Virus record (IMG/VR): IMGVR_UViG_3300043395_003089
Span: 1-64,000 of that record
Length of the DNA stretch: 64,000 bases
Origin: a virus
Strand: one strand, 5' to 3'
Part shown: positions 6,220 to 62,727 of the stretch, one piece after another
How the letters are laid out: each line of letters starts with the position of its first letter
Numbering within the stretch: position 1 is the first letter of the stretch
Position numbers and translations under genes: made by a program
The notes under the pieces: generated by a model
The model's database searches: none
What the model was told of the DNA's origin: nothing
The model's input: only the letters and a program-made list of their open reading frames with translations

Positions 6220-8859
6220 TTACTCGTCCTCGGGCAACGCAACCTCGCCGTCGCCGGGCACCAACTCTAGCCGCGGATCAGTGTGGCGCCAGAGCCGAAA
6301 GTGCCGCTGCCCGTTGACGTTCTGTTGCTCGATGCGGAACACGCGTTCCACGTGCGTCGAGCGCAACTTGCTGACGAGCGTACGCGGCGTGTCTTTCCAC
6401 TGAATCTGCTTGCTCTGCGCGAACGTTTCTAGCTCGGCGTGGAGCACGTTCGCGTTGACCGTCCGGCCGATGTTCGTGGGCGCGTGACGCGACTTGTAAC
6501 CGATCCACTGTTCGAGCAGCTCGACCAACGGGTCTTCCTCGTTGACGAATGCGTCGCGCTCGCCTTGGAGCGCCGACAGAACGTGATCAACATCGTCGGT
6601 GCCCCATCCGAGCACGCGGCCAATCACGCGACCAAGCGCCGCGAACGACGCCATGCGGAAGCGCTCGTTGCGCGTCGAGAGTCCGCCCTCGGCACGGATG
6701 CGCGCGGAGATCTGGCCCAGAAACCAGAGGTATTCGCCGAACAGCGCCCCGCGGTTATCGAGTAGATCGTTGACGAGCGTGCCGCGATCGGTGAACGACT
6801 GACGACGATCGAAACGCAAGATCAAGCAACGATCGGCGACGTCATCACGGCGAAAGCTCGCCGGGTTGCGCGTCGCGACCGCGATGAAGCTCTGCGGCTT
6901 GATCACGAGGTTCTCGTCATCGGTGAATAGCCGCCGCTTGTGCCACTTCGCGCCGGTTGCGTACGCGGCGATCGCATCGGGCACCCAATCGATGAAGCTG
7001 TCCGTGTTGTCGAACAGCGCGATCGGCGAGCGCGTTAGGATCACGCCGAAGTCGTCTTCCTTGTTTCGTTGGAGCACCATCGGATGCTCGGCGCCGGTCA
7101 GAACCAACTGCGCGTGCGTCACGCATGACGTGTTGTGCGTGACCGTGAAGTCACCGAGCAAGAATCGGCCGTCGCCGTCGAGCTGGAAGCCGAAGTATTC
7201 GCCGTCGCCGATCGGCTCGATCTTGAACCCAGTACGTAGGACGTCTTTGACTTGTTGACGTGGCTTGGCTTGCTTGCGCTTGAGCTTGCACGGAATGCGA
7301 TCGATGTGACCACTGATCGTCACGCGATAGTAACTACCCTCGAAGCCGATCGACTTGATCGTCGCCCACTTGATCGTCGAGTACGCCGCGAAGCCTAGGC
7401 TGCGCGCCAAAAACAGCACGTCATCGCGAAGGCCGACATCCTTCATGGTGATCTCGTAGTAGTTGTTCCCGAGGTAGCCGTCGGTATCTAGAAGCCCAGC
7501 AAGCAGGTTTAGCCGCACGGGCTCGCTATTGATGAGGTACTCGCGTGGGATTCGTTTTTCTCCGTCGACGACACAGGTCTTGAAGAACGTACGGAGCGGG
7601 TTTCGTCCAGCGCCGCCGAGCGCCCCAGACGTGAAATGGCAAGTCACGACGCCGTTGCGTGGGTCGACATGCTTGCGGATAGTCAAGCCGTGTTGTGTCG
7701 CGATCTCCTCGCAATAGGCGTGGATCTCAGTGTCGTTTTTGGTGATCGCGGCGCCATCCTTGTGACCGTCACCAAGCCATAGCCCAACCAGATACGGCTC
7801 TACGCTTACGGCCCGCGTTGGGAAATAGACGGGGCAGCGAAACAACAGCGCCTGATCACGGCCGAGCGCCGTGTAGCGTTGGTAGCGCTTGAATTCACCG
7901 ATTTCTGCGTCGACGATCTTGTTTCGGTTGATCCATTCGTTGCGCTTGTTCTTGTGGCCGCTCAACACGACCGTTAGCACATGCGCATCGTTGCAGACGA
8001 ACGCGTCACCCTTGATCGGCGTTACGCGATAGAGCGGCCCGTGGCCTTTGGTGGTTCCAGAAACTCGACGCGGCTTCGAGTCGGGCCCCATCACAAGATC
8101 ACCGTCGACAACCCGCTCGACGGGCTTGACCGAGCCGTCGAACATCAACACAGGCGTTCCGCGGCCGAGACACTTACCCGCCCCCATCACGCCCTCGACG
8201 AGCAGGATCGGCTTGTCGATCAACAAGTCAGGAAACGCCAGCGCGAAGATCCAGATCGTGAGCGCCTTGCGTTGCAGCTCGGGCGTGATGCCCGCGAGCC
8301 CCGCCGCGGCGAAATTCGGGTTGGTCAGCCGTTCGAGCAGCATGCCGTGCGGCCCGATGTCGGGATTCGCGCATGGATGTCCGTCGTCGTCGTCGGCGAA
8401 GAACACGCCGTCCTCGCCGTTGGTGACGCGCGTGATCGCCTCGCCGTCGATCTTGTACATGCAGCCGTCGTAGTTCGAGATGTAGCCCGTCGTCGTGCGC
8501 GGATCGCACGCAGCGAACCGGCGCATCTCGGCCTTGACGCCCTTACGCTGGATGTAGTGCCGCACGGCATCGTGGATCGCCGTGGTCCACGGTTCGTGTT
8601 CGAGCAGCCCATAGGTCTCGTTGAGGTACCCGAACCACGCCGCGCCGCCGCGGTTCGGCACGCGCAAGACTTCATGCGACGCGCCGATCACCGCGTACAT
8701 CTGCCCGCCGGGCTGCGCGAGCACGAATTGCGTGCCGCTGACGAGCTCCTGTTCGAGCACGTAGTGCCAGATCGCGAGCCGCTTGTGGCGCGCGTCTAGC
8801 CGATCATCGCGCATGATGCGGCCGACGCGCATCCGGTGTTCGGCGCCACTAACAGACAC
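6220..8859 (-). CDS. P-loop helicase (primase-associated type) containing an intein
   Basis: Walker A LLVEGVMGAGK|T split by an intein; downstream LFDN, ATGAKWHKRRLFTD and DVADRCL motifs. Confidence 0.75.
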   Translation of the reverse strand: MSVSGAEHRMRVGRIMRDDRLDARHKRLAIWHYVLEQELVSGTQFVLAQPGGQMYAVIGASHEVLRVPNRGGAAWFGYLNETYGLLEHEPWTTAIHDAVRHYIQRKGVKAEMRRFAACDPRTTTGYISNYDGCMYKIDGEAITRVTNGEDGVFFADDDDGHPCANPDIGPHGMLLERLTNPNFAAAGLAGITPELQRKALTIWIFALAFPDLLIDKPILLVEGVMGAGKCLGRGTPVLMFDGSVKPVERVVDGDLVMGPDSKPRRVSGTTKGHGPLYRVTPIKGDAFVCNDAHVLTVVLSGHKNKRNEWINRNKIVDAEIGEFKRYQRYTALGRDQALLFRCPVYFPTRAVSVEPYLVGLWLGDGHKDGAAITKNDTEIHAYCEEIATQHGLTIRKHVDPRNGVVTCHFTSGALGGAGRNPLRTFFKTCVVDGEKRIPREYLINSEPVRLNLLAGLLDTDGYLGNNYYEITMKDVGLRDDVLFLARSLGFAAYSTIKWATIKSIGFEGSYYRVTISGHIDRIPCKLKRKQAKPRQQVKDVLRTGFKIEPIGDGEYFGFQLDGDGRFLLGDFTVTHNTSCVTHAQLVLTGAEHPMVLQRNKEDDFGVILTRSPIALFDNTDSFIDWVPDAIAAYATGAKWHKRRLFTDDENLVIKPQSFIAVATRNPASFRRDDVADRCLILRFDRRQSFTDRGTLVNDLLDNRGALFGEYLWFLGQISARIRAEGGLSTRNERFRMASFAALGRVIGRVLGWGTDDVDHVLSALQGERDAFVNEEDPLVELLEQWIGYKSRHAPTNIGRTVNANVLHAELETFAQSKQIQWKDTPRTLVSKLRSTHVERVFRIEQQNVNGQRHFRLWRHTDPRLELVPGDGEVALPEDE
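7132..8172 (-). mobile_element. intein with LAGLIDADG endonuclease (347 aa) in Walker A
   Basis: CLGRGTPVLMFDG ... VGLWLGDG ... LAGLLDTDG ... FTVTHN/T. Confidence 0.92.
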
Positions 8860-9518: not shown

Positions 9519-12128
9519 ATGATCACCGAGCTATCGAACAAGCCCGGCTTCTATCGCGTCTCGATGACCGAGCAACGCATCGCGCAGCTCGTCGGCGTGC
9601 CGGGCATCAAGTGGGATCTCGACGAAGATCTCTGCATCAAGGCCACGCATGCGACGATGCCGCGCAACGCGCTCGCGCTCCTCGATGATCCTGAAGCGAT
9701 CAAGATCCTCGAAGCCGCCAAGCAGCCCGGCGACTGGGAGGCGCGCGAAGCCCATTGGGCGCAGCTCGGCGTCAAGCCGCGTACGACGCAGCATCAGGCG
9801 ATCGACTTCATCGAAGGGCGCCGCGGCACGCTGCTCGCCGACGATATGCGCGTAGGCAAGGGGCATCCATTGTGGACACGCGTGCTCACCCCTGATGGCT
9901 GGATCACGATTGGCGCATTACAAGTCGGATCCGCCATTTTCGGTAGTGACGGCCGACAGCATCGCGTGACCGGTATTTTTGATCGTGGCCGACTACCCGT
10001 CTATCGTGTCCGGTTCTCGGACGGAGCATCTGTCCTAGTCGACGGGGATCATCTATGGCAAGCGTGGGATCATAACGCGTGGGCTCGTGGTGGTGCTCCA
10101 CAGATCCGATCGACGGATGTGCTGCTCGCGGATCTGACATACACGAATGGCAATCGAAAGTGGCGGATCCCGATGGTTCAGCCGATCGAGTTTCCGCCGT
10201 GCGAGTTGCCGATCGATCCTTACGTGCTTGGTGTGCTTCTCGGTGACGGCTCGTTCTGTGGTAGCTCTGTCGTGTTCACGCCCGGTGATGAACTAGTTCC
10301 GAAGGAAGTCGAGCGACGGCTACCGTCTGATGTGCGTCTCGTCGCAGACGCACGAGACGATCGCGCTACAACGTGGCGCATCAGCCGACGATCGGTTCAA
10401 AACAGCGTCCGAGCTGTACTCAACACCCTTGAGCTTTGGGGTTTGAGCTCAGCTGACAAATTTGTGCCCGACGTCTTCCTGTTCGCATCGATCGAACAAC
10501 GACTAGCGTTGCTGCGCGGCTTGATGGACACCGACGGCGAATTTTGTGATGGGCATGTCGCATTCTCGTCGGCGTCGAGAGCACTCGTAGATGCCGTCCG
10601 ATTTCTCGTCGAGAGTATGGGTGGTTGCGCGCGTGAGCCTAAGCCGAGAGAAGCGCCACGCTATACGTACCGCAACGAGAAACGAATCGGCCTTCCCTCG
10701 TTCCGCTTGAACATCTCGATGCCGGAAGGAATCTCGCCGTTCCTGACGCGCCAAGGCTACCAACCCCACTCTAAGTATTTTCCATCGAGGACGATCGCAG
10801 CGATCGAGCCTGCCGGTGTTGAGCACGTGCGCTGCATTTCTGTGGACGCGCCTGATCGCCTATACGTGACCGAGCACTGCATCGTCACACACAACACCGG
10901 TTCATGCGTCGGCGCGCACGATCCCGCGCGTGGCCCGCTTGTCGTCGTCGGGCCGCTTCCGTCGCGCGCTGTGTGGCTCGGCTGGTTCAAGCGGCTGTTT
11001 CCGGGCGTGCCCGTCGGCGTCGCGATCGGCCGCTCGTTCGATACGCAGGTCATGCACCAGCCGATCGTATTCGCGCACTACGACGTGATCCAGCACTGGC
11101 GTGCGATGTTCAAGATCGGCACGCTCGTGTTCGACGAGGCGCACGCGCTCTCGAATCCACGCGCGAAGCGCACCGAGGCCGCGGTGGTGCTACAGGCCTA
11201 CGCCGAATGCGTGGTCGCCGCGACCGGCACGCCGATCTGGAACCGACCGGCGACGATGCACTCGATCCTCGGGCTCGTCGCGCCCGGCGCGTGGGGTTCC
11301 GAGTACGACTTCGCGAATCGCTACGGCGCACCCGTGACGTCGGCCTACGGAACCAAGTACGAGGGGATCTCGAACGCCGAGGAGCTGCACGCGCGCCTCG
11401 GTGACGTGATGATCCGTCGACGGTGGCAGGATGTCAACCAAGACATCCCGCCGATCTCGCGCAGTGTGATCGTCGCCGAGGTGACCGAAGCCGAGCGCAA
11501 GCGGCTTGACATCCTCGCCGGAAAACTGAAGGGCGAGCGCTCGAACACGGCCGCGAATCTCGCCGCGTACCGACGGCAGATCACGAAGCTCAAGACCGTC
11601 GTGACGGTCGCCGAGGCCCAGAAGATCGTCTCGCGCGGCGAGCCTGTTGTCGTCTGGACGTGGCATCGCGACTTCGCGGAGCTACTCGCCGATCGTCTCG
11701 GTACGCCCTACGTGATCCACGGTGAGATCAACACCAACGAGCGCGAGCGACGCATGCAAGCGTGGAAAGACTCGCTCGTGCCGATGCCGCTCGTCGCGAC
11801 GATGGCCGTCGGGCAAGTCGCGATCGATCTCTCGCACGCGCGGTTCGCGATCTTCGCCGAAGTCGACTACATCCCGGCCGTGATCGCGCAGGCCGAGATG
11901 CGGACGTTCGAGGCCTCGCGGGCGATGTTCATCACGTTCGTGATCGCGAATCACATCGTTGATCAACGTCTCGTGCGTGCGCTCGTCGCCAAGTTGGCCT
12001 CGGCGGATCCGCTTGGCGTCGCGGCGGCGCGCGATTCGATCGATGCGTTGCGTGAGGCCCTCATGGGCCCCGAGGACCCGGGCGACTTGGATCGTTTGCT
12101 CGAAGATCTGATCGCGAGCGCGGCATGA
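9519..12128 (+). CDS. SNF2/SF2-like helicase containing an intein
   Basis: LLADDMRVGK|T, LVFDEAH, ATGTPIWN, QAEMR. Confidence 0.85.
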   Translation: MITELSNKPGFYRVSMTEQRIAQLVGVPGIKWDLDEDLCIKATHATMPRNALALLDDPEAIKILEAAKQPGDWEAREAHWAQLGVKPRTTQHQAIDFIEGRRGTLLADDMRVGKGHPLWTRVLTPDGWITIGALQVGSAIFGSDGRQHRVTGIFDRGRLPVYRVRFSDGASVLVDGDHLWQAWDHNAWARGGAPQIRSTDVLLADLTYTNGNRKWRIPMVQPIEFPPCELPIDPYVLGVLLGDGSFCGSSVVFTPGDELVPKEVERRLPSDVRLVADARDDRATTWRISRRSVQNSVRAVLNTLELWGLSSADKFVPDVFLFASIEQRLALLRGLMDTDGEFCDGHVAFSSASRALVDAVRFLVESMGGCAREPKPREAPRYTYRNEKRIGLPSFRLNISMPEGISPFLTRQGYQPHSKYFPSRTIAAIEPAGVEHVRCISVDAPDRLYVTEHCIVTHNTGSCVGAHDPARGPLVVVGPLPSRAVWLGWFKRLFPGVPVGVAIGRSFDTQVMHQPIVFAHYDVIQHWRAMFKIGTLVFDEAHALSNPRAKRTEAAVVLQAYAECVVAATGTPIWNRPATMHSILGLVAPGAWGSEYDFANRYGAPVTSAYGTKYEGISNAEELHARLGDVMIRRRWQDVNQDIPPISRSVIVAEVTEAERKRLDILAGKLKGERSNTAANLAAYRRQITKLKTVVTVAEAQKIVSRGEPVVVWTWHRDFAELLADRLGTPYVIHGEINTNERERRMQAWKDSLVPMPLVATMAVGQVAIDLSHARFAIFAEVDYIPAVIAQAEMRTFEASRAMFITFVIANHIVDQRLVRALVAKLASADPLGVAAARDSIDALREALMGPEDPGDLDRLLEDLIASAA
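9861..10895 (+). mobile_element. class 3-type intein with LAGLIDADG endonuclease (345 aa), starting with Gly
   Basis: GHPLWTRVLTPDG ... DHLW ... LGVLLGDG ... LRGLMDTDG ... VRCISV ... IVTHN/T. Confidence 0.88.
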
Positions 12129-17919: not shown

Positions 17920-20900
17920 ATGGCAGATGGCGAGCGCGTTAGCTTGCCGTTGCTACGCGGCGTGACCGATGGTGCCGACTGCGGCTCGTGTCCGCTGTCG
18001 TCGCTCGGCATGCCCAATCGCCCGGTGTGCGGCGAGGGCCCCGAAGATCCCAAGTGGATCATCATCGGCGAGGGCCCTGGCGCGTTCGAGGTGAACCGCA
18101 ACAAGCCGTTCTGCGGCCCGAGCGGTCAAGTCGTCAACCAGATCCTCGGCAAGATCGGCGCGGATCGTTCTACGATCTGGGTTACCAACGCCACGTTGTG
18201 CGTCGAGGGCACAACACAGGTACGCCTCGGAGATGGCTCACTAGAACGTATCGATCGACTGGTCGCTAGCCGCTACACGGGGGAGGTTCAAACGATCGAC
18301 CACGACGGATCGATCACGACTCGACGTGTGACTGGCTGGCATAGAAACATGCGTGGCACTCGTGAGATGCGCAATGTCTCATTTCGTTGGGCTCAACGCG
18401 CGGGCGCGCGTGGCCGAACGCACGCAGTGCTAACCGAAGATCATCCGGTTTTGACGCCTGATGGTTGGCGTAACGCGGCTGAGATCACTGGTGGATTGAT
18501 CGCTACTGGTGACCGTGCGCCGTCGGAAATCGCACAGCAAATCGCCTGGGGCACATTGTTAGGTGATGGCACGTTCGCACGTGGAAGTTTGGTTGTCCGC
18601 CACGCGCGCGATCAACGCGAATACGTGGAAGCTAAAGCACGCGCACTCGCTGGCTTTGGGGTCTCGCCGATCTTTGCTCCTGCAACCGGTTTGCAGGTGC
18701 AAGATCAATTTGGGTTTAGGACACAGGCCGGCGCGTGGGGCCACGCTACACATGACTTGTTCTATCCCGACGGGAAAAAGCGGATCCCGCGAAGCGTTAT
18801 CGAGAACGCCACCGATCTTTTGTTCGCGATTTGGTACCTCGACGACGGTTCGATGCAACATCGAGGTAGCAGACGTCCAAATGCCGAGATTTGCGGGGCC
18901 GGATTCCCGGAGGAAGATCTACGTCTCGCAGGGGCGGCTCTAGCCGCGCGTGGGTTCGAGAATGTCGTTAGAAACGGGCGTATTCGATTCAACGTAGAAG
19001 CTGCCGCGAGATTCAGCCAGCGAATCGCGCGGTTTGTTCCACCAGCGCTCGATTACAAGCTACGTCCAGAAGATCGCGGTCAGTATGACCCGTCAACATA
19101 TGCCACTACTGCGGCGAGACCATTCTTCGATCAGGCCGAGAGTGTTTGCACGAGCCCCCGACGTAAAGGCGAGGGCGCAACCGTTTACTGCCTAGACGTC
19201 GAAGATACGCACAACTTCATCACGCCTGGCGCTGTCGTACACAACTGTCAGCCGCCATCCGGTGCCGACGTTCAGACGCGCGAGCGCGCCGCGGAAGCAT
19301 GTCGCGGGCGATTGATCAACGAGCTGTCGTGGTTTCCCGGCAAGCCGATCCTGACGTTCGGCGCCGTCGCGGCACGCGCTGTGATCCCGAAGGCCACGCT
19401 CGACATGATCGAGCCACCCGAGACGATCAAGGCGCTCAAGAAAGCCCAGAAGCTTCGGCAACAGCCATCGCTGAAAGCCGCGCGCACCAGGCGTAAGGCG
19501 ATCACCAAAGCCGCCGAGAAACGCCTCAAGTTTCTCATCAAGCAGCATCGCAAGAACCTGACGACGATCTACAAGGTCAGGCACAAGCAACGCCCGCCCG
19601 AGCACGTGCTCCGCGAGGAAGTGCTGCGCGTGCAGGCCAAGCTCGAACGCAAGGCCAACGAAGACGCGATCAAACTGGTTGATCTGCGCGCAAAAGAGCG
19701 CGCCCTCAAGGCCTTGCTCAAGGCCAAGCAGCCCAAGAAACCAAAGAAGCCCAAGCAGGTCAAGATCACCGACATCTGCGGGACGCTGTTCGACGTCGAC
19801 GTAGACGGCTCCGGCGAGCGACCCGTCGTGCCCGCGATTCATCCGGCGGCGCTTCTACGTGGCGGCGGCGCGTCGATCGGTGGCTCGCACACGCCAGACA
19901 TGGCGTTCGTCAACCTGATGTACGACGCGGGGAAAGTCCAGAGCCTCGCGAACGGCATCGATATCCGGCTGCGCCCGAACCTCGAATTCGCGCTCTACGA
20001 TCAACAGCACGTCGGCGAGCTGTTCCTCAAGATCTACCACAGCGCGCTCGAAGAGGGCGCGTGCTCGATCGACCTTGAGACCTACGTCGACGATCCCGAG
20101 CGGCACCACGCGCTCATGGCGTATGTCGCCAAGATCAAGGTCATCGGCATCGCGACGAGCGAGCTATCGGTCTCGCTGTCGTGGGAGCTGTTCCCGGCGT
20201 GGGCACAGACGCTACTACAGGTCTTGCTCTCACGCGTCTCGTGCACGTTCCACAACGGGCTCTACGATCGCACAGTCCTGCGCGCGTACGGCTTCGTGAT
20301 GTGCACCGAGAACTTCGAGGACACGCTCCTCGGGCACCACGCATCGTTTCCGGGCAACTCGCACCGGCTACAGATCGTCACGAGCCAGTTCTACGGCGTG
20401 GGCCCCTGGAAAAGCGAGTACCGCAACCAGGAAGAGACCCTCGAAGGCCTCGCGAAGTACAACGCGCTCGATACCGCCGCGACGCACGCGCTCCGTCGGC
20501 CGTTGTTCAAGCACATCGCGCGAACAAAAACTGAACGTGTTTATAACCTCGACAAGTACATGAGCGACTGCGCGAGCCACATGCATCTCGCGGGCATGCC
20601 GGTCGATCGCGATATCAACAGTCAGCTCCTCGCAACGTTCTCGAAAAACGTCGCCGAGGCACGGCGTCACGTCGAGGACATCGCGCGTGATCCCAAGCGG
20701 CGCGAGATGATCTGGCACTACCTCGCGATCGCGCAAGCGGGTAAGGCTCGCAAGCTGGACCCGCCCGACTTCGAGGCGCGCTACCAGCTGCGCCTATCGG
20801 CGATGCAGCTCGATCCCGACTGGAAGTGGAAGATCAACGCCGGCAAGCACATCGCGGCGCTGCTCCAAGCGATGGGCGTCGAGCTCATCGCGACGACAGA

Positions 20901-22788
20901 AGGCGGCGACATCTCGACGAAGAAAGACGTGCTCGAATCGCTCGTCGGTTACCCGATCGTGCGTGACATCCTCGCGTTTCGCGAGAACGACAAGCTGCTT
21001 TCAACGTTTTGTCTCGCACCGGAGACACGTGTACTAACCGGAGATCTGCGGTGGGTTGAGCTTGGTACGATCAGAGTCGGCGATGAGCTAATCGGCTTCG
21101 ACGAACACGGACGAGGGAAAGCATCCAAGCAAGGGCCGACTGCAACCTATCAACCAGCGCTCGTTGAGGGGACGATGCGCCTCAAGTTAGATTGCTATCG
21201 CGTAACGACAGATCGAGGTGTGTCTGTCGTTGCAAGCGATGACCATCTTTGGTTGGCACGAGATGGCAGCGCGAAAGGTCGCACGCGCTATTGGAAGAAG
21301 ACGTGCGATTTACAGCCTGGTGATCTGATCGCGACGTTCGTTGACCCGTGGGATGAAGACACGAGCTGGGAGGCTGGGTTCATCGCAGGATTCCTCGATG
21401 GCGAAGGTTGCGTCCTGAAGCATGGTGCATGTTTCACACAGAACCCGGGAACCGCTTTAAGTCACATGCTAGCGTTGCTCAAGACGAAGGGCTTTGACAC
21501 GTTCGTCAACAAGAAGGCCAACGCTAGGTCAGTGAACGTGTACCCACATGGTGGCGTTCCAGGTGCAATGCGGATGATCGGTCAGTTTCGAGCGCCTCGA
21601 TTGATCGAAAAAGCGCGCAAGCTTTGGAACGGAAAAAAAACTGGTGGACCGTGTAGCCCCGCAGCGATCGTGCGCTCAGTCGAGTTTGTAGGTCAGCGTG
21701 AAGTAGTTGCGATGAAGACGTCTACTAAGACGTTCATTGCTGAAGGAATGCTTACCCACAACTGCTGGCCGATCTTCGATCGTCGCGACCCACGAACTGG
21801 CGAGATCCAGACCTACGGCTTTGCCGACGAGCAATCGCGCATCAGGCCGATCTGGAACATCCACAGAATCACCGGTCGTTGGGCTTCGCAGTGGCCGGTG
21901 GTTTCAAACGTTCCGAAGGACAAATGGAAAAAGCTGACGCCAGAAGAATTGTTGACGCTTGGGATTCTGCCGGACGCTAAGAGGTTTCAAGTCGGCGGAA
22001 TTTGGTTTCGCGTCAACAAGGACAACTCCATCTCCAAGATGGTTCGACCGAATCTACGCGCGCAAATTCGAGCGCGTCCTGGCAGAAAATTGGTCGGCTT
22101 CGACTTCGCGCAGATCGAGGCACGTGTGATCGCGCTGATCTCTGGGACACCGTTTTTGATGGAGGTGTTCGCGGATCCAACGCGTGACATTCACATCGAG
22201 TGCGCGCAGATGATCTGGGAGCACTTCGATTCGCTAGATCCAGACACACGCAAGCAGCTTCGCGAGAACGTCAAGAACATCGAGTATGGCTACTTCTACA
22301 TGGCGCAGCTAGCGACGCTGCACCAGACGATGCTCAAAGCCGGCAACCTGATCAAGATCGAGGATCTCGCGAAGGCGATCGCTAAGCTAGCCAAGCGGCT
22401 ACCGGAGATCACGGAGTGGCAGCAATCGACGATCCGTGGCGCGTCGCAGCCGCCGTACGAGATCAAAGACTTCATTCTAGGCCGTCGTCGGACGTGGCCA
22501 ATGGGAAACATCGAGGCGCCGGAAGCCGTGAACTACGGCGTGCAGACCGCAGCGGCGTCTATCATGAACACTGGTATGGCGAACATGATGCCGCGTCTCG
22601 CGGAGTTTTGCGAAGCCGATCCGATCGCGCAGATCCACGACGCCGCGGTATTCGAGTGCTGGGAGGATGAAGCCGAGCGGCTTGCTTCTGTTTGTGTAGA
22701 AGCTTTCGAGCAAGTGTACGAGCGCGATGGACGCTCGGTACCGTTCAAGATCGAAACGAAGATCGGGCAGAGCTGGGATCAAGTATGA
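17920..22788 (+). CDS. polA: family-4 uracil-DNA glycosylase / 3'-5' exonuclease / family A DNA polymerase fusion with two inteins
   Basis: UDG CxxC, IGEGPG..E..PFCGPSG, HPAALLR; Exo SIDLET, FHNGLYD, YNALD; Pol motifs DFAQIEAR, RENVKNIEYG, QIHDA. Confidence 0.92.
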   Translation: MADGERVSLPLLRGVTDGADCGSCPLSSLGMPNRPVCGEGPEDPKWIIIGEGPGAFEVNRNKPFCGPSGQVVNQILGKIGADRSTIWVTNATLCVEGTTQVRLGDGSLERIDRLVASRYTGEVQTIDHDGSITTRRVTGWHRNMRGTREMRNVSFRWAQRAGARGRTHAVLTEDHPVLTPDGWRNAAEITGGLIATGDRAPSEIAQQIAWGTLLGDGTFARGSLVVRHARDQREYVEAKARALAGFGVSPIFAPATGLQVQDQFGFRTQAGAWGHATHDLFYPDGKKRIPRSVIENATDLLFAIWYLDDGSMQHRGSRRPNAEICGAGFPEEDLRLAGAALAARGFENVVRNGRIRFNVEAAARFSQRIARFVPPALDYKLRPEDRGQYDPSTYATTAARPFFDQAESVCTSPRRKGEGATVYCLDVEDTHNFITPGAVVHNCQPPSGADVQTRERAAEACRGRLINELSWFPGKPILTFGAVAARAVIPKATLDMIEPPETIKALKKAQKLRQQPSLKAARTRRKAITKAAEKRLKFLIKQHRKNLTTIYKVRHKQRPPEHVLREEVLRVQAKLERKANEDAIKLVDLRAKERALKALLKAKQPKKPKKPKQVKITDICGTLFDVDVDGSGERPVVPAIHPAALLRGGGASIGGSHTPDMAFVNLMYDAGKVQSLANGIDIRLRPNLEFALYDQQHVGELFLKIYHSALEEGACSIDLETYVDDPERHHALMAYVAKIKVIGIATSELSVSLSWELFPAWAQTLLQVLLSRVSCTFHNGLYDRTVLRAYGFVMCTENFEDTLLGHHASFPGNSHRLQIVTSQFYGVGPWKSEYRNQEETLEGLAKYNALDTAATHALRRPLFKHIARTKTERVYNLDKYMSDCASHMHLAGMPVDRDINSQLLATFSKNVAEARRHVEDIARDPKRREMIWHYLAIAQAGKARKLDPPDFEARYQLRLSAMQLDPDWKWKINAGKHIAALLQAMGVELIATTEGGDISTKKDVLESLVGYPIVRDILAFRENDKLLSTFCLAPETRVLTGDLRWVELGTIRVGDELIGFDEHGRGKASKQGPTATYQPALVEGTMRLKLDCYRVTTDRGVSVVASDDHLWLARDGSAKGRTRYWKKTCDLQPGDLIATFVDPWDEDTSWEAGFIAGFLDGEGCVLKHGACFTQNPGTALSHMLALLKTKGFDTFVNKKANARSVNVYPHGGVPGAMRMIGQFRAPRLIEKARKLWNGKKTGGPCSPAAIVRSVEFVGQREVVAMKTSTKTFIAEGMLTHNCWPIFDRRDPRTGEIQTYGFADEQSRIRPIWNIHRITGRWASQWPVVSNVPKDKWKKLTPEELLTLGILPDAKRFQVGGIWFRVNKDNSISKMVRPNLRAQIRARPGRKLVGFDFAQIEARVIALISGTPFLMEVFADPTRDIHIECAQMIWEHFDSLDPDTRKQLRENVKNIEYGYFYMAQLATLHQTMLKAGNLIKIEDLAKAIAKLAKRLPEITEWQQSTIRGASQPPYEIKDFILGRRRTWPMGNIEAPEAVNYGVQTAAASIMNTGMANMMPRLAEFCEADPIAQIHDAAVFECWEDEAERLASVCVEAFEQVYERDGRSVPFKIETKIGQSWDQV
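18199..19245 (+). mobile_element. intein with LAGLIDADG endonuclease (349 aa) in the UDG domain
   Basis: TNATL|CVEGTT ... GTLLGDG ... IWYLDDG ... AVVHN|CQPP. Confidence 0.92.
21010..21762 (+). mobile_element. intein (251 aa) in the polymerase domain, with a reduced endonuclease
   Basis: KLLSTF|CLAPETRVL ... DHLW ... IAGFLDGEG ... MLTHN|CW. Confidence 0.9.
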
Positions 22789-28211: not shown

Positions 28212-28544
28212 ATGTACGCGCTGAGATCCTACGAACAGACCGCGGTGTATGACCCCACGAATCCCGATCAACGGATTCGTGAAGGCTACGCCAGCGACCC
28301 GGGGCGCTGGACTTCCTACTACTGGAACCCAGTGGACACGGGTGCGCAGTTGCGCGGCTCGGGTCTCGGGATCTCGTGGTCGTCGCTCGGCTCGACGGCG
28401 CAGATCGGCGTGATCGCGGTTGTCGGCGCGCTCGCCGGCTACTTCACGTGGAAGCAGTGGGGCGACAAGCTCCGTCCGACCATGAAAAAGATCCCGATCA
28501 TCGGCTCGCAATTCGCCGGCTACAAGCGGCGGGGGCGGCGCTGA
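28212..28544 (+). CDS. small membrane protein with basic tail (putative virion)
   Basis: GGAGG SD; TM IGVIAVVGALAGYFTW; LRGSGLG motif. Confidence 0.7.
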   Translation: MYALRSYEQTAVYDPTNPDQRIREGYASDPGRWTSYYWNPVDTGAQLRGSGLGISWSSLGSTAQIGVIAVVGALAGYFTWKQWGDKLRPTMKKIPIIGSQFAGYKRRGRR

Positions 28545-28865: not shown

Positions 28866-29105
28866 ACCGTCACCAGCGAGAACGCGCGGATCAACCGGCG
28901 CTGCGAAACAGCGCTGAAGGCCTTGAGCCCGCGCGAGTGCGACGCCCGAGCGGCGCTGCGCGCGAGCAACGCATGCGCCCACGTTCAATGGGGCACGCGG
29001 CTCGACAAGCACGCCAAGCGCGTGCTCAAGCGGCACGGGACATCATGCCCGGCGTTGCGCTTCGATGGATTCCACGGAACCCGCCGACGTCGGCGCCGTC
29101 GGTGA
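28857..29105 (+). CDS. basic protein with poly-Arg C-terminus
   Basis: Ends FDGFHGTRRRRRRR. Confidence 0.65.
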   Translation: MARTVTSENARINRRCETALKALSPRECDARAALRASNACAHVQWGTRLDKHAKRVLKRHGTSCPALRFDGFHGTRRRRRRR

Positions 29106-29117
29106 TAGGCTAGGGCC

Positions 29118-31775: not shown

Positions 31776-34655
31776 CTAGCGTGGGCGCGCGTAGTCGGCC
31801 GTGAGCGTCGCGTGAACATCGCCGGGCCGCGCGTCGTCGTAGAAAGGCACCGGTCGCATGGCGCCCTTCACGGGCACGTGCTGGCCATCCATCGTCTCGA
31901 CCCAAGCGGTTCCCTGTTGCTTCCACTTGCGGCGCCACGCCTCGGCCTCGGGCAACGTCAGCGCCCGCGGGGCGTCGACGATCTTGCGGACGCTAACGAT
32001 CTTGCCGTCGCGGCGCGTGACGAGGTTGTAGGCGACGCGATAGCCGGTGGTGGAGCCCATGCCGGCATTCTTGCGCGCTGCTCTGCCACGAAGGCCGAAC
32101 AGATGGTGCTTGCTGAGTGTGTGGTGAGCAGCGGCGAAGCGTCGATCCGTCGAAGGCGATTGCTCGAAGTCTCGAAGGAGCTTGCGTGCATCATCGAGCG
32201 ACGCCGAACGCGGCAACGTACGGAGCAGCTTCGAGACCTGCCATGCGCCCATTGCGGCGACGCGGCGAGCTTCTTCCTCGGTATCAGCCGTGCCGAACGG
32301 GATCAGCGGCTTGGTCCATTCGCCGTTGCGAATGTGCGGCACGCTCGCGATCTCGTCGCGTTCAAGCCCCCATGCGAGGAGTAGCTCGGGTTCCCACTGG
32401 CCTGGATTTTTTGGATCCTCGTGAACGTCCCACCAGACGTTGTAGACATTGTTGGAGCCGTCCTGTGGATAGATTCTCACGGCGCCCGAGTCGGCGTGGT
32501 CATGATTCATCGTCGTCAGTACCGAGATCGGGATCTCGTTCTGCTCGGCGAAGTCTTCGGCGATGTCTAGCGCCTCGGGTCCTTCGTTGTTGATCAGCCG
32601 ACGAAACATGTTGCGCTGGTTCCTGAGATCCTCGTCGTCGAGCTCGAAGTACGTTACGTTCTCGTTCATGCGCCCCGCAGCCATCGCCTCTTCGCGGGTC
32701 GCGTAGCGCGACGTCTTGATCTTGCGGGCGCCGAGCCCGAACAGCTCGGGCTGCTCCTTCAAGTGATCGCGCGCGGAGTCGCGATAGATCGCGTCGACGA
32801 CACGTTGACGATAGGCTCCCTCGGTCAGATTTTTCCCGCGGTACAGCTTCAACTCGTTGGCGACTTCCCAAGCCTCGGCGCCGACGATCTGTTCGAGCTC
32901 GCGAAGCGACTTGGCTCGACGAGGGTAGCCAGCGCCGATGTGTAGCGGCTTGTTGTCAAGCAATGTATTCCACTCGACATCGTAGAGTTGTTTGCCGTCG
33001 ACGCTCCTCCCCGGGAGACGGGTGATCGTCCAACTCACGCGTGTCGCCGGATCGTCTGGGGCTCCAACCGGGCTCAAGTAAAGCGTACGCAGCTCGCCGA
33101 TCTTGATTCCGTGCTCTAGCGCGTAGTCGGTCGCAGCAACCAACTCGGCCGGCGTCTGCGCGGTCTGAGTGAGCATCTTGAAAGTCTCGGTCGGAAACTC
33201 GTTGCGGTCCTCGCGCTCGCCACGAAGCCCGAACAGCTCCTCGGGCTCGCTGTTGTCGCGATCGAGCGTATGGAAGATATCGCGTGCTTGCGGCGTGAAG
33301 CCTTGCGCACGCAGCTTCTTCGTCTCTTTCGCGAGTGCCCATGCCTGCGCGGTCGCCGCGCGTCGGCAGTAGTCCATGTTGCCTTGGTAGTGCTCCTCGA
33401 ACTTGACGTGATCGCTCTCGCGTTCTTCGCCGCCAACGCGCGCTCCATCGATACGAACATCGAAGACGGCTTTGCACTCGCCACCGTGGCGCTCGTTCAC
33501 GCGCTTGACGCGCCACGAGACACGGTCACGCTTGAAGATGTCCTCGTTGTTGTCGAGCCAGAACGTGCCGCGGTTGTCGGTGCCGCCTTTGGACAGCTCG
33601 CTCAGCTTGATCTCGTGTTGAAGCGCGAGATCCTCGGCGGGAACAAGCGCGCCCGGATCGGGGTCAGCGATCAGCTCCTTGATCTGCTTGCTCACGCGTT
33701 GACGTTCGGCCAACGGATCTTCGCCGAGGCCGCGTTTCTGGCGCGCGACGCAACGCTTGAACGCAGCGGGTGGCATGTTGACGCTACACGTCTCGCCGAG
33801 ATCGTCGAGCCCCTTTAGCTTGTAGCCTTTCTCTCGAAGTTTTTGCACTTCCCGCAGGCGCTCCTGCCACTCGTTGTGCGACTCATGCGGATGCCAGGCG
33901 TCGACCGGCGTCGAGCGCGTTGGTGGCGGCACTGGCGGCGTATCCTGTCGGCCGAGGCCTGAGATCATCGGCAGATCGATCTTGCCTTTCTTCCACCACG
34001 AGTAGGCCAGCGCGCCACCGACGGCGCCGAGGATGCCAATCGCGAACGGGAGCCACGTCTTGGGCTGCGCAGCGTCGAGCACGAGCTTTTGCAAGCCCTG
34101 CGCGGTCACGCGCGCGGCGTCGCCGCCGAAGTGCACGCCATCGCGAGCTCGACCGACCATCGCCGTGATCGGCCGCGGATCGATGTAGCGGTTCTTGCCG
34201 AACACGCTCTGCATCATCTCGATCACGGGCAGCGCCTGTTGGGTCAGCTGATCATTGGCGTACGCGAACGGCCCGATCGCCCACACGTCGGCGCCGAGGC
34301 CCTTGTAGAAGTCGCGGATCTTCGTCATCGCCTGCTTGTCGACGTCGAGATTGAGCCCGATGTCGTTGGTGCCAAGCACGACGAAAACCTTGGTCGGCAT
34401 GAACGCTTGATCGCTGCCGAGCAAGGCCTGGAAGTTCTCGCGGCCGAAGAAATTGTGCGCGCTGCGGCCCACACGCGCGTTGACACGCACGGCCGAGGCT
34501 CCCTGTTCGAGCAGCATGCTCGCGAGCAAGTCGCCGGGCTGGCCGGACGCGCGATTCGAGCCCGTGTCAACGTCCCAGATCTCGGGCCCGGCGTCGGGGC
34601 CGTGATGGCTCAACGAATCGCCAAAAATCAAGATGCGCTGCCCGCGGACGTCCAT
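31776..34655 (-). CDS. 959-aa modular protein: SGNH/GDSL hydrolase, TM segment, three internal repeats separated by xGL(R)G motifs
   Basis: IFGDSLS, GTND, DGVH; TM WLPFAIGILGAVGGALAYSWW; repeats ending LFGLRG/LFGLG/LFGLRG. Confidence 0.8.
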   Translation of the reverse strand: MDVRGQRILIFGDSLSHHGPDAGPEIWDVDTGSNRASGQPGDLLASMLLEQGASAVRVNARVGRSAHNFFGRENFQALLGSDQAFMPTKVFVVLGTNDIGLNLDVDKQAMTKIRDFYKGLGADVWAIGPFAYANDQLTQQALPVIEMMQSVFGKNRYIDPRPITAMVGRARDGVHFGGDAARVTAQGLQKLVLDAAQPKTWLPFAIGILGAVGGALAYSWWKKGKIDLPMISGLGRQDTPPVPPPTRSTPVDAWHPHESHNEWQERLREVQKLREKGYKLKGLDDLGETCSVNMPPAAFKRCVARQKRGLGEDPLAERQRVSKQIKELIADPDPGALVPAEDLALQHEIKLSELSKGGTDNRGTFWLDNNEDIFKRDRVSWRVKRVNERHGGECKAVFDVRIDGARVGGEERESDHVKFEEHYQGNMDYCRRAATAQAWALAKETKKLRAQGFTPQARDIFHTLDRDNSEPEELFGLRGEREDRNEFPTETFKMLTQTAQTPAELVAATDYALEHGIKIGELRTLYLSPVGAPDDPATRVSWTITRLPGRSVDGKQLYDVEWNTLLDNKPLHIGAGYPRRAKSLRELEQIVGAEAWEVANELKLYRGKNLTEGAYRQRVVDAIYRDSARDHLKEQPELFGLGARKIKTSRYATREEAMAAGRMNENVTYFELDDEDLRNQRNMFRRLINNEGPEALDIAEDFAEQNEIPISVLTTMNHDHADSGAVRIYPQDGSNNVYNVWWDVHEDPKNPGQWEPELLLAWGLERDEIASVPHIRNGEWTKPLIPFGTADTEEEARRVAAMGAWQVSKLLRTLPRSASLDDARKLLRDFEQSPSTDRRFAAAHHTLSKHHLFGLRGRAARKNAGMGSTTGYRVAYNLVTRRDGKIVSVRKIVDAPRALTLPEAEAWRRKWKQQGTAWVETMDGQHVPVKGAMRPVPFYDDARPGDVHATLTADYARPR

Positions 34656-34944
34656 GCCCTACAGGCTATCACGAGCGGAAATAGGCGAGCCGGCCGGGGT
34701 TTCACCGGCTGAGGGAGGAACGCGCACCGCTACGCGCCACAATGGGGCCCTCAACAGCGATCGGGACGCGACATCGCACGATCGAGGCCTAGCCAGCGAG
34801 GGAAGTCTCTGGGGTCGGCGTTCAGCTCAGAAGTGGCGGATACGATCGAGTGCGGGGTGCGCGAGAGTCAGGTCCATTACCTGATGCTTGTCGAGAGCAT
34901 CGTGCGTGTGGGCACCACGCGGCGGATCGTGTCCGAGGCTGGTT

Positions 34945-35463: not shown

Positions 35464-35985
35464 CTAGCTCGCTGCTCTGCCAGTCCTAGCTACGTCGAAA
35501 GCAACCGTAATGCGCGGAGTCTCGTGCGGGTGTTTCTCGACGGAATGCCCGAGCCGCGATGGGAAGAGAACGAGTAGATCGGTTACTGGCTCGACACGCT
35601 CGACGCAAACCTCGTATCTCGACGGGCACCACTCGAAGATCGTTGCGGCACTTCGAGGGCCCCCTGGTTCCAGGTAAACGATTCCTGACCATGCATAGCG
35701 CGCGTTGTGCGTGTGCGCTCGATGATGTGAGCCCAGACGATTCACGACGGCCCAGCCAACGAGCGAGGCTGGATCAGCTTCGAGCTCAGGTATCGAGGCA
35801 AGCAAGGCGCAGAGCCGCGCGTGCAGCCACGTCGTCTTGAGCCACGTAGGCGACGAGCGCCAACCGCCTCGGTTGTGTGAGGCGTGAGATTCCGTCGACG
35901 CGGCGAGCTGCAAGATGTCGGCGCAGAGCGCTTGGCGTTCGAGCTCGCCGAGGCCGAGCGACAAGCGCTTGATCGGCGACGTCAC
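35464..35985 (-). CDS. 2OG-Fe(II) oxygenase-like protein (TIGR02466 type)
   Basis: NRGGWRS, WAVVN..HTH..WSGIVYL, LFPSRLGHSV, RITVAFD. Confidence 0.75.
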   Translation of the reverse strand: MTSPIKRLSLGLGELERQALCADILQLAASTESHASHNRGGWRSSPTWLKTTWLHARLCALLASIPELEADPASLVGWAVVNRLGSHHRAHTHNARYAWSGIVYLEPGGPRSAATIFEWCPSRYEVCVERVEPVTDLLVLFPSRLGHSVEKHPHETPRITVAFDVARTGRAAS

Positions 35986-36383
35986 TCGGTCGGGTTGTAC
36001 GTGTCGCACTTGCCGGGGCCCGCGTTGGTGTGCGGAACCCAGAACAGCACGTTCGGTGCCGCAGCGCCTTCATCGCTGTTCGACAGCACGACATGCACCG
36101 TGTTGGTGTCGGTGTCGAGGTAGGGCTCGCCGACGATCGTGATGCTCGCCCATTCGCTCATCGGTGGTAGCGGGATCACCATGCAACGCGACGCGGGCGT
36201 CGTGCCATCGGATGGTGGCGTCGATTGCGCGACACCGAGCGGCGGATCGACGGGGTCCGATGGACCACCAGACGTGTTGTAGGCCTGATTGGCGACCTGC
36301 AACAGCGTATCCACGTTGGTGTCACCGCCAGGGAGGGAGAGTCGAGCTCGACGCCAATGGAGATTGCCAGCTTGTGCGCTCAT
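35982..36383 (-). CDS. putative virion beta-strand protein
   Basis: Composition; TGCTAGCGT box 6 nt upstream. Confidence 0.45.
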   Translation of the reverse strand: MSAQAGNLHWRRARLSLPGGDTNVDTLLQVANQAYNTSGGPSDPVDPPLGVAQSTPPSDGTTPASRCMVIPLPPMSEWASITIVGEPYLDTDTNTVHVVLSNSDEGAAAPNVLFWVPHTNAGPGKCDTYNPTE

Positions 36384-36941: not shown

Positions 36942-36953
36942 GCTGTCAGCCTA

Positions 36954-37316
36954 TCACGGCACGCGCTTGTGCTCACCCTCGTGGTTGAGCTTGAGCCCGC
37001 AACGATGTCGGGTCTTGCACTCGCCGCAGTAGACGTGTTCGCGGCACTGATCGAGCATCCGGCCGTATTCGTCGATCGGCATCAGGTTGTGCCCGAGATG
37101 CTTGCGAAACCACGCCGGGTCGATTGACCCGTAGCACCCGCTGTAGCCCAAGCGGAAGTTGAGTTGATCGCCAAGCTCGGTGGATAGCTCGGCGAGCGCT
37201 GCGATTGCGTCAGCATGCTTGATCAAGAGCAACATGCGATCGTCTTGGTGATTCGCGTCGTCGAAGTGGTGGATCTCATCGCAATCGACGCACTTGATGT
37301 TCCAGTCCGTGCTCAT
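36954..37316 (-). CDS. Cys/His-rich hypothetical protein
   Basis: CVDC, CGEC..CGLKLNHEGEH. Confidence 0.5.
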   Translation of the reverse strand: MSTDWNIKCVDCDEIHHFDDANHQDDRMLLLIKHADAIAALAELSTELGDQLNFRLGYSGCYGSIDPAWFRKHLGHNLMPIDEYGRMLDQCREHVYCGECKTRHRCGLKLNHEGEHKRVP

Positions 37317-38612: not shown

Positions 38613-39566
38613 TCACTTGATCACCAGCTCGCGCAGCCACTGCGGTGTCGAGTTGCGAACTTTCTCGGCGATCGCCTTCATGTCGATGTAGCCGCCCATC
38701 GCGCCGAGGCCGGGCAACGTGTGACCGGTCATCGCGGCGATCTCGTGCGGCGCGAGCCCGGCGTCTGCGCGCCACGTCACGAACGTGTGACGAAACTGGT
38801 GGGGATGGATGTGGCCGATCTTCGCCTCAGCCGTGCGCTTGTTGAGCACCCGGTTGACGTGATCGGGGTAGAACGGCGTGCGCTCGATCGCGTATGCCGC
38901 ACCGAACGGCCCGATCTGGCGTTGCACACCGCAGAACACGGGGCCCGAGCCGCGACTTCGCCCCGAGAGCCACGCGAGCCACGGGCGCAGCGCCGCGATC
39001 GCGGTGTCCGAGAGCGGCACGGCGACGTCATCGAGCCCGGTGCCTTTCATCCGCACCCACGCGTGCGGGTAGTTGCCCTTGCTCAAGGCGATATCGAGAT
39101 GCGTACGCTCGACCGTCATCGAGCAGATCGACATCTTCCGCATGCCGGTTTCGAGCATGACGATCACCATCGCGTGATCGCGCAGCGCGAGCGGATCGCT
39201 GACGGCCGCGCGTGCGAGCGACTGCACAAGCTTGGTGACGGTCTCTTGCTGTAGCGCGTGCTTGGGGCGAGCCTTGCGGCCCTTGGCTTTCTGCACGTAC
39301 GCGAAGTCGAGCTCGGGCTTGTTCTGGTAGTGAGCGCGCCACTTCGAGGCGTACGCGACGCTCGCCATCAACCGATTCGCGCTCTGCGGGCGCAGCTCGC
39401 GCTCGTCGAGCAAGTGATCGTAGAACGCTTGAGCGCGCTCGCGCGTCCAGCCGCTCGGCGCCTCGCCTGCGAACGCGATCCACTGATCGATGTCGCGCAG
39501 GTAGCGCTTCCTCGACGATGGCGCGAGGTTGCGGCTTTTCTTGATGACGTCGTGTAGTTCGCTCAT
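38613..39566 (-). CDS. tyrosine recombinase / integrase
   Basis: ETGMR, HPHQFRHTF, TGH, GGY catalytic residues; SAM-like N-terminal domain. Confidence 0.9.
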   Translation of the reverse strand: MSELHDVIKKSRNLAPSSRKRYLRDIDQWIAFAGEAPSGWTRERAQAFYDHLLDERELRPQSANRLMASVAYASKWRAHYQNKPELDFAYVQKAKGRKARPKHALQQETVTKLVQSLARAAVSDPLALRDHAMVIVMLETGMRKMSICSMTVERTHLDIALSKGNYPHAWVRMKGTGLDDVAVPLSDTAIAALRPWLAWLSGRSRGSGPVFCGVQRQIGPFGAAYAIERTPFYPDHVNRVLNKRTAEAKIGHIHPHQFRHTFVTWRADAGLAPHEIAAMTGHTLPGLGAMGGYIDMKAIAEKVRNSTPQWLRELVIK

Positions 39567-42045: not shown

Positions 42046-42828
42046 TCACCGCTTCACCATTCGCAGCATGCAGGTCCGTACGCTCGTGCCCGATGGCTTG
42101 AACGCGTCGTCAGGTAGGTTCTCGATGCTGTTCTCGTCGTCGTTCGCGCGTAGCGCCCACTCGCGAAACTCGCGATGGCGCCTGTCCCGACGAAACTGCA
42201 CGCCAGCGGGCAACACGCTCACGAGCACGCCACCAGGCACGAGCATCGAGAACGCGTGGCGCACGTGATCGAGGTGATCGCCGAGCCCGACTTTGCAGAA
42301 CGGCGGGTTCATGACGACGCGATCGAACGGCTCATCCGGCACGTATTCGAGGAAGTCGTCTTCGGTTTTCTGTGACAGCACGGTCAGTGTCAGCATGCGT
42401 CGCGACAGGTCCATCAACCCGAGCTTGCGTTGTCGATCGCGCTCGATCGCGACCACGCCGCACTCGATTTCGAGTAGCACGCGCACGATCGCGCCGTCGC
42501 CCGCGCTCGGTTCGAGCACGATGTGCCCCGGGCGCACGTCGGCAGCCTCGACGAGCTGACGCGCGATCGGGTCGGGTGTCCTGAAGAAGCCTAGCTCTTG
42601 ATGCGTCGTGACTTCGCCGGTCGTGAGCGCGAGCTCGATGCGTTCGCGCGCGTCGCACGAGAACGAATGCGCCTTGAGCTTGCGTTGCCACTTGCCGCCG
42701 AGCGCTTCGAGGACTTGGTTTGTCTTCGTGTAGAGCGCGCGATCGAGCTGTTGCGCGATCACGACGTTGCCCGAGGCGTCGTATTCGACGGCCGAGAGCA
42801 CGCTTAGAACTTCGTCGCTGATCTTCAT
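42046..42828 (-). CDS. DNA N6-adenine methyltransferase
   Basis: FFRTP, VLEPSAGDG, VVMNPPF, FKPSGT. Confidence 0.88.
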   Translation of the reverse strand: MKISDEVLSVLSAVEYDASGNVVIAQQLDRALYTKTNQVLEALGGKWQRKLKAHSFSCDARERIELALTTGEVTTHQELGFFRTPDPIARQLVEAADVRPGHIVLEPSAGDGAIVRVLLEIECGVVAIERDRQRKLGLMDLSRRMLTLTVLSQKTEDDFLEYVPDEPFDRVVMNPPFCKVGLGDHLDHVRHAFSMLVPGGVLVSVLPAGVQFRRDRRHREFREWALRANDDENSIENLPDDAFKPSGTSVRTCMLRMVKR

Positions 42829-62537: not shown

Positions 62538-62727
62538 TTCGCACGCACTGGAAACGGTGATAGGCTGACAGCTCAGATGAGCAACACGCCCAACAAGTCG
62601 TGCTGCACGCGGCCGATCGTCAGGCCGGCAGTGCCGCCTGCCCGTCCCGCGATTCGACCGGTCGCCCCCAAACCACGCCCGATCCGCCCCCTCGGCACTC
62701 GGCCTGTGCGCTAGTATCGGAGTCACT

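Follow-up and report, generated by a model that had tools for sequence, protein, structure and literature searches.

In many viruses of eukaryotes, the processing of polyproteins and the tag-directed maturation of particles play a central part. The capsid-targeting sequences of phage T4, with gp21, and the propeptides of phiKZ and SPN3US represent short common peptides on unrelated particle proteins that a viral protease removes during assembly, and the prohead proteases of the T4/phiKZ type are serine enzymes related to herpesvirus assemblin, with cleavage after Glu. Adenain (AVP, MEROPS C5) cuts adenovirus precursors at (M/I/L)XGX-G and (M/I/L)XGG-X, for example at IVGL-G in pVI (PMC4246237). 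Polyvalent proteins of phages and conjugative elements, exemplified by P1 DdrB, which is processed before packaging, provide a further point of comparison (Iyer et al. 2017, PMC5512222); a term search of that paper turned up no discussion of SGNH or transglutaminase-like domains. For membrane-containing tailless bacterial viruses, no report of polyprotein processing or tag-directed maturation was found in the searchable literature. Here we describe P0001, a 959-residue protein encoded in a 64,000-nt stretch of viral DNA (the window), which constitutes the first 64 kb of IMG/VR record IMGVR_UViG_3300043395_003089 (whole record 89,167 bp, estimated 86% complete). P0001 joins an SGNH/GDSL esterase domain and a single transmembrane (TM) helix to a string of units delimited by a conserved Gly tag. 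It is best read, with a confidence that stops a little short of even, as a precursor that would be processed into a tail-anchored esterase and free cargo.

An earlier reading of this DNA, made from the letters alone (the sequence-only reading), had parsed the protein as an esterase, a TM helix and modules delimited by Gly motifs, and this parse is borne out by the translation, by homologues and by a structure model (Table 1). When the seven motifs it had listed were recomputed from the translation, each fell at the position that had been given. The open reading frame (ORF) at 31776-34655 has a G+C content at third codon positions of 0.79 and a codon bias typical of the genome's genes, and a protein identical to P0001 is on record, encoded on an 89,167-bp contig. 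The first tag lies about 8 residues past the basic cluster that follows the helix. Behind it, residues 236-286 comprise a Pro-rich disordered stretch with one helix (260-275) and end in LKGLDDLG, after which comes a two-Cys unit that is also found in P0002, P0003, P0005, P0006 and P0009. The remainder of the chain is made up of three module copies, two linkers and a basic C-terminal domain. In the model, each of the six P0001 motifs behind the helix falls within or beside an inter-domain segment with a low predicted local distance difference test (pLDDT) score.

Table 1. Parts of P0001, its upstream element and the candidate enzyme (window positions unless marked otherwise; aa, amino acids)
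Feature	Residues	Position	Strand	Basis
Whole ORF, P0001	959 aa	31776-34655	-	open throughout, stop codon included
Class II promoter-like element GTGATAGCCT		34663-34672	-	17 nt 5' of ATG
SGNH/GDSL esterase domain	1-195	34071-34655	-	catalytic blocks, pLDDT about 90, Foldseek
Single TM helix	201-223	33987-34055	-	model and homologue hydrophobicity
Basic cluster KKGK, then first delimiter ISGLG (aa 231-235, 33951-33965)	224-235	33951-33986	-	disordered in model
Delimiter LKGLDDLG	279-286	33798-33821	-	low-confidence stretch behind helix 260-275; matched by LKGLG in the P0002 alignment
Two-Cys unit (C..N...F.RC..RQKR) ending in KRGLG (aa 307-311, 33723-33737)	287-311	33723-33797	-	recurrence in homologues
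Module copy 1, ending in EPEELFGLRG (first LFGLRG: aa 474-479, 33219-33236)	312-479	33219-33722	-	jackhmmer, model
Module copy 2, ending in EQPELFGLG (LFGLG: aa 638-642, 32730-32744)	480-642	32730-33218	-	jackhmmer, model
Low-confidence linker	643-680	32616-32729	-	structure model
Module copy 3, most diverged, ending in KHHLFGLRG (second LFGLRG: aa 852-857, 32085-32102)	681-857	32085-32615	-	jackhmmer
Short basic linker RAARKNAGMG with last delimiter NAGMG (aa 863-867, 32055-32069)	858-867	32055-32084	-	translation, model
Basic C-terminal 'GYRV...VPVKGAM' domain, pI 10.1	868-959	31779-32054	-	recurrence in family
P0059, membrane-anchored transglutaminase-like Cys-His-Asp enzyme	229 aa	genome 72372-73061 = L002:8372-9061 (outside window)	-	Pfam, homologues

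Judged from sequence counts, the Gly tag is not a product of chance. Its core is L-x-G, its usual form (E/D)-L-(F/Y)-G-L-(x)-G, and it appears at every junction. Within P0001, L[FY]GL occurs three times against 0.03 expected and GL(x)G six times against 1.0 expected; 0 of 2000 shuffles reached three in the former case, and 0 of 2000 matched the count in the latter. In homologues, the motif is conserved both at module ends and as post-TM tags. Among relatives, 45 module ends display L-[F/Y/W/L]-G (3 of the 45 being chain ends at ...LF), usually after (E/Q)-P-x-E, while of the 37 internal junctions, 19 carry L at +1 (background 7%) and 16 carry G at +2 or +3. Across the post-TM regions of the family, GL(x)G is found 36 times against 8.7 expected, an excess of about 4-fold in counts that are not independent, given that the family members are related. 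The tag flanks cargo of unrelated types: it borders the repeat module, the two-Cys unit, a VDGKRW...CW..GGLG unit and the GYRV domain, which in many homologues has it on either side. Furthermore, the continuation of the tag past ELF(G) lies outside the module fold, yet is constrained at internal junctions.

The placement of the first tag relative to the membrane helix also recurs. L.G falls within 20 residues after the TM helix or basic cluster in 23 of the 34 cargo-bearing homologues (11% expected), and [LFMVI].G within 20 aa after the helix in 28 of them (23% expected). Five homologues lack cargo altogether; by count, none of these displays a G[LM]x0-1G motif behind the helix, and their 4-19-residue tails are likewise without L-x-G on reading of the listing. 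Proteins in which a TM-only anchor precedes one module show the order helix, basic residues, QLGA, AGLSG or LLGD, and then cargo, and TM-plus-module proteins end in ELYG followed by a few Arg.

The repeated module constitutes a new protein family. The three diverged repeats noticed in the sequence-only reading were recovered by jackhmmer with domain E-values of 1e-32 to 1e-61. A search seeded with copy 2, which shares 59% identity with the last P0002 module, retrieved 28 copies in 15 of 21 homologues plus all three P0001 copies. A three-copy profile run against 1.84 billion representative proteins retrieved 48 proteins only, including single-module proteins of 176-231 aa. The ~165-aa module is acidic and alpha/beta; modelled by itself (pLDDT 84, predicted template modelling score 0.80), it displays a helical hairpin, a four-stranded sheet and a long helix. 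Structure prediction of the repeat, a check proposed with the earlier parse, thus furnished a confident model, but no convincing structural relative was found in the PDB or BFVD. Pfam and PHROGs contained no match to the module, and PDB sequences nothing below E 0.06. The best Foldseek hits (E 0.02 in the PDB and E 0.015 in BFVD) were both levivirus coat proteins with TM-scores of 0.3-0.45, and the best VIA-align match, with Z 5.1, was below the tool's stated noise range. Because these structural matches are weak, the module is left without a fold assignment. An ESM Atlas search with the module and the GYRV domain gave scores of 0.83-0.85, inside the noise range. The conserved residues of the module include no nucleophile-type residue, so it is probably a binding module, not an enzyme. 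Neither five related viral genomes, of which four are at least 95% complete, nor the rest of this genome contains the module, and it therefore represents accessory cargo, not a core building block.

The other units behave in a comparable manner. At least 12 family members contain the GYRV domain, whose place in the chain varies, and stand-alone GYRV proteins measure 106-118 aa; both cargo types looked for, module and GYRV, are thus also encoded as separate small proteins elsewhere. At least four unrelated unit types are present in the family and are shuffled between homologues, with further cargo in relatives comprising an EncFtn-like domain (P0007) and DUF5661 (P0015). Stand-alone modules (P0036, P0054 and P0055) and stand-alone GYRV proteins (P0060-P0062) from other metagenomes share an N-terminal leader, K..AQL[D/E]REIxxxL, which may constitute an alternative addressing signal; the leader motif QL[DE]REI was not found in this genome. 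Behind the SGNH-TM anchor in L009:9932-11755 (+) and in P0018, the cargo contains a Gly-rich loop, GAGAEGIVFC...AYKVG, that by eye resembles a protein-kinase ATP loop.

The constant part of the protein is the esterase and its helix. SGNH block I (G12-D13-S14, with the catalytic Ser) and blocks III and V (G95-T96-N97-D98 and D172-x-x-H175, the latter providing the Asp-His of the triad) are invariant in 20 homologues. The Pfam GDSL scores of P0001 lie below the curated cut-offs (25.0 versus 32.9 bits for PF13472 and 22.7 versus 23.6 bits for PF00657), whereas the homologue P0018 passes both thresholds with 42 and 34.8 bits. Foldseek searches with the SGNH model (pLDDT about 90) returned the flavodoxin-like SGNH fold at prob 1.00 and target TM-scores of 0.55-0.71, with matches to acetylxylan esterase Axe2, the PatB/Ape peptidoglycan O-acetyl enzymes, TesA and two phage tail-fibre esterases. 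The invariant blocks, the above-threshold scores of P0018 and the superposition of the model on known esterases settle the SGNH assignment, and from the model the domain looks active. It is most likely an O-acetyl or acyl esterase directed at a sugar polymer or lipid of the cell surface, an O-acetyl sugar polymer being the most likely guess for its substrate class. The domain shares its fold and catalytic blocks with the SGNH esterases of phage particles (tail-fibre structures 9lna and 9d81) as well as with Axe2 and PatB/Ape; unlike the tail-fibre enzymes, it is TM-anchored and not part of a fibre.

The esterase begins at the first residues of P0001, and there is no signal peptide. The site of the modelled TM helix is hydrophobic in most homologues. 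The SGNH-TM core is conserved across the related group and accounts for the entire protein in several related viruses; the five cargo-less homologues (219-274 aa) consist of SGNH domain and helix with their short tails only. The segment spanning residues 196-235 (window 33951-34070) poses a topology puzzle, with basic residues C-terminal to the single helix and an esterase devoid of a signal peptide. By a simple positive-inside reading, the 200-aa enzyme would lie outside and the 730-aa cargo inside, an arrangement that would be unexplained unless cutting precedes membrane insertion. In our judgement, one helix could not easily place both a signal-less 200-aa N-terminal enzyme and 730 aa of cargo, and cutting would ease this problem.

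A candidate for the cutting enzyme was found elsewhere in the genome. A six-frame Pfam search of the 89-kb record gave no match at E <= 1 to adenain (C5) or Ulp1 (C48), nor to the prohead proteases S77 (T4-type) and S78 (HK97-type) or to ClpP-type enzymes, and the zincin peptidase of polyvalent proteins (PF18818) was absent in the same search. The full-contig protease search suggested by the sequence-only reading therefore returned no adenain/Ulp1 homologue, but did uncover a cysteine-protease-like gene of the transglutaminase-like, papain-fold kind, P0059. This protein possesses an N-terminal helix, and its Pfam Transglut_core score is 24.1 bits against a cut-off of 23. Transglut_core matches are present in 5 of 5 viral homologues (best E 4.2e-8), in all of which Cys153-His186-Asp201 is invariant. 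A P0059 homologue occurs in 4 of 5 related viruses, and in 4 of the 4 that are at least 90% complete. In all five enzyme copies, (G)LG follows the protein's own TM helix at a distance of a few residues; in P0059 the motif reads LMGLG. Searching P0059 against PDB sequences returned nothing, and a literature search for transglutaminase-like maturation proteases in phages found nothing relevant.

Among 50,697 annotated phage records, the sole relative of P0059 is gp34 of Salisaeta icosahedral phage 1 (SSIP-1; JN880423), a "structural protein" of a tailless membrane-containing phage. The match (E 3e-4, 24.7% identity over 77% of the query) is very distant, yet the Cys, His and Asp residues align. 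The hydrophobic anchor of gp34 is C-terminal, in contrast to the N-terminal helix of P0059, and no function of gp34 was found in a literature search. This relationship points to a membrane-containing tailless virion for the present virus.

Two promoter-like elements, found by direct enumeration, partition the genome. The class II element, GTG[AG]TAG[GC][CG]T, stands 16-20 nt before start codons in 16 copies (1.2 expected) and heads the target gene, the Cys enzyme and genes of the 73-78 kb block; it is conserved before a homologous gene in the related virus G001 (locus L017). A distinct element, CTGKCAG...GCTA, heads about 22 genes, mostly replication genes. Besides the copy listed in Table 1, the class II element is present in the window at 36948-36957 (-), 29102-29111 (+) and 62557-62566 (+), with 12 more copies that include those at genome 73096, 74403, 76594, 76839, 77122 and 77339. 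The sequence-only reading had proposed comparing the motif between virion and replication proteins, and enrichment in putative late/virion genes, as in P0001 itself, holds for a narrower form. Within a "late set" of class II element genes plus the 64-78 kb block, which is partly post hoc and yields small counts, hydrophobic-x-G-[LM]-G occurs 5 times against 0.7 expected and G[LM]G 10 times against 3.8 expected; the replication set contains 0 of the former and 0 of the latter (2.8 expected).

One member of the late set is a 426-aa protein (genome 73113-74393 (+) = L002:9113-10393) that begins MLLARDGFGGLG. Its 35%-identical homologue in a related virus (L017) displays an unrelated leader that also ends in GLCGLG, and by this comparison an N-terminal GLG tag is conserved on otherwise unrelated leaders. 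A QLRGSGLG...WS segment recurs almost unchanged in two small proteins, encoded at window 28212-28544 (+) and genome 75222-75647 (+); in one of them the tag stands at residue 51, in the other at residue 8. Homologues of the protein at 28212-28544 lie near the SGNH-TM gene in L004 and L005.

In the reading we favour, the gene product would be a membrane-anchored precursor in which a constant esterase and helix precede a string of accessory cargo, namely the two-Cys unit, the three ~165-aa modules and the basic ~90-aa domain. The tag would serve as a recognition and cutting site at each junction, and the virus's own membrane-anchored Cys-His-Asp protein, P0059, would be the cutting enzyme. A cut at the juxtamembrane tag would leave a tail-anchored esterase in the membrane, which is what the short homologues encode, and cuts at the remaining tags would free the cargo units as separate proteins that may be packaged in particles.

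The resemblance to adenovirus is one of logic and in part of site pattern. In both cases, a short hydrophobic-x-Gly-x-Gly tag is present on several putative particle precursors and the virus encodes a Cys-His-Asp enzyme; the GYRV domain, like the core proteins of adenovirus, is basic. The delimiters had been called adenovirus-protease-like sites in the sequence-only reading, and this description stands for ISGLG and LFGLG, which fit the type-1 pattern. It does not extend to enrichment of the generic pattern in P0001, and what stays invariant here is L-[F/Y]-G and not LxGxG, an additional residue being common (LFGLRG). Unlike adenain, the candidate enzyme belongs to another papain-fold family and is membrane-anchored. 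The record contains no C5/C48 homologue, and because it holds no clan-CE enzyme, an assignment to the adenain/Ulp1 clan fails. The proposed substrate differs as well, being a membrane-anchored multi-unit chain from a virus with a bacterial host, for which cutting is only proposed.

With polyvalent proteins, P0001 shares a mosaic multi-domain make-up, rapidly shuffled units and a proposed proteolytic release. It differs from them in its N-terminal esterase, TM anchor and explicit conserved delimiter. Neither P0001 nor the genome contains a zincin MPTase, and Pfam revealed no catalogued polyvalent or LPD domain in P0001. In contrast to T4/phiKZ maturation, searches of this genome revealed no S77, S78 or ClpP homologue, no HK97 capsid and no terminase.

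The main and serious rival, though on balance unlikely to be the correct account, is that P0001 remains an intact bead-on-string membrane protein in which E-L-[F/Y]-G caps the C terminus of each module and GL(x)G provides flexible linkers. Four stand-alone-type proteins end exactly at E-L-[F/Y]-(G), marking it as a natural module C terminus, and at least this part of the motif is accordingly a property of the fold, or of what the module itself does; in the model, the ELF turn forms a short helix of the domain, with moderate confidence. No protease of a family known for virion-protein processing was found in the genome. The KRGLG delimiter of P0001 aligns with KRALA in the closest homologue, P0002, so not every site is conserved. 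An intact chain accounts less readily for a tag that also flanks unrelated cargo and follows the TM helix, for the constraint on L at +1 and G at +2/+3 beyond the fold at internal junctions, and for the same tag on unrelated late proteins and on the Cys enzyme; the difficulty of placing the signal-less N-terminal domain and the long cargo with a single helix would likewise persist.

The natural module ends and the unconserved KRGLG site weigh against processing, and several further points do the same. All support for cleavage consists of patterns in sequence, among them family counts that are not independent and small counts from a late set that is partly post hoc. The generic adenain pattern [MIL]xGxG occurs twice in P0001 against 0.9 expected, a density equal to that in the rest of the proteome, and 11 of the 34 cargo-bearing homologues are without L.G in the first 20 post-helix residues. 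The Transglut_core score of P0059 is marginal, and papain-fold and transglutaminase-like proteins include cell-wall peptidases and cross-linkers. By our own reading of the charges around the helices, the membrane could separate the enzyme domain from the cargo. Finally, the target gene is located between the replication block and an integrase, and its assignment to the virion is one that we infer, the sole indirect support for virion or late expression being the promoter-like element that it has in common with the particle-gene block.

It is improbable, by comparison, that P0001 acts as a host-membrane accessory in lysogenic conversion or exclusion, with the esterase remodelling a surface polymer and the cytoplasmic modules serving as decoys or inhibitors of host defences. 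An integrase lies near the gene here and in four related loci, the cargo shows the hypervariability and dispensability typical of arms-race genes, and in L007 two tail-spike-like genes with polysaccharide-lyase folds precede the short form. Set against this, the gene bears the promoter-like element of the particle-gene block, not the replication/early one, the SGNH-TM core is conserved across the group, and the tags would go unexplained. Because this reading is compatible with processing, it is a rival on location only.

The least probable alternative, by a narrow margin, makes the tag a docking or addressing signal that binds a particle or membrane component (possibly a non-proteolytic Cys enzyme) and recruits tagged proteins, much as phage T4 capsid-targeting peptides and encapsulin cargo peptides might be likened to it: the tag does occur on many unrelated late proteins, often near an end, several tags per protein would give multivalent binding, and the different common leader on stand-alone cargo in other viruses suggests an addressing logic, but one tag would do and tags between every pair of domains would be unneeded, the conserved active-site triad of the co-regulated enzyme suggests catalysis, and the binding partner is only hypothetical.

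The kind of virus was approached through its relatives and neighbouring genes. Searches of INPHARED phages by protein and by DNA gave no match to P0001 or its DNA, PHROGs assigned P0001 to no family, and an IMG/VR locus search with P0001 alone returned nothing, whereas an alignment-based search did retrieve related loci. The single match in a genome-contig search, a 9-kb contig of an Actinomycetes metagenome-assembled genome, is too weak for host assignment. An ordinary tailed phage, initially considered from tail-spike-like and "terminase" PHROG matches, was dropped because the "terminase" matches cover intein regions only and no HK97 capsid or terminase is detectable. The inteins, which bear LAGLIDADG homing-endonuclease domains, interrupt three genes at window 6220-8859 (-), 9519-12128 (+) and 17920-22788 (+), encoding an unidentified 879-aa protein, an SNF2 helicase and a UDG/DNA polymerase A fusion, respectively; it is the first two that give the "terminase" matches. 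Within a few kb of the target lie a 2OG-Fe(II) oxygenase (window 35464-36009 (-)), a tyrosine-type integrase (38613-39566 (-)) and a DNA methyltransferase-like protein (42046-42828 (-)) whose PHROG relatives are segments of very large proteins. Most relatives measure 85-102 kb; the exception, L006 (IMGVR_UViG_3300024054_000362), measures 221,422 bp and possesses both a short SGNH-TM gene and the Cys enzyme. We tentatively entertain the possibility that these viruses form an undescribed group of large (85-220 kb), probably tailless membrane-containing bacterial viruses in which a membrane-anchored papain-fold protease cuts L-x-G-L-G tags, with this gene encoding the most elaborate substrate. 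The searchable literature yielded no account of such a polyprotein strategy in bacterial viruses.

Even without cutting, the family (48 members among the representative proteins searched), its conserved end motif and the TM-basic-LxG-cargo architecture represent new descriptions, and the ~165-aa module adds a protein family of unassigned function. If the tags are cut sites, P0001 would offer a compact, testable substrate with multiple sites, a defined candidate enzyme and products that are easily read out by size, and hence a new protease-site pair; the appending of exchangeable cargo to a conserved membrane anchor would also represent a new way of packaging accessory proteins. If the reading as a whole is true, bacterial viruses would possess a polyprotein strategy convergent with adenovirus maturation, one that delivers a tail-anchored entry esterase together with swappable cargo.

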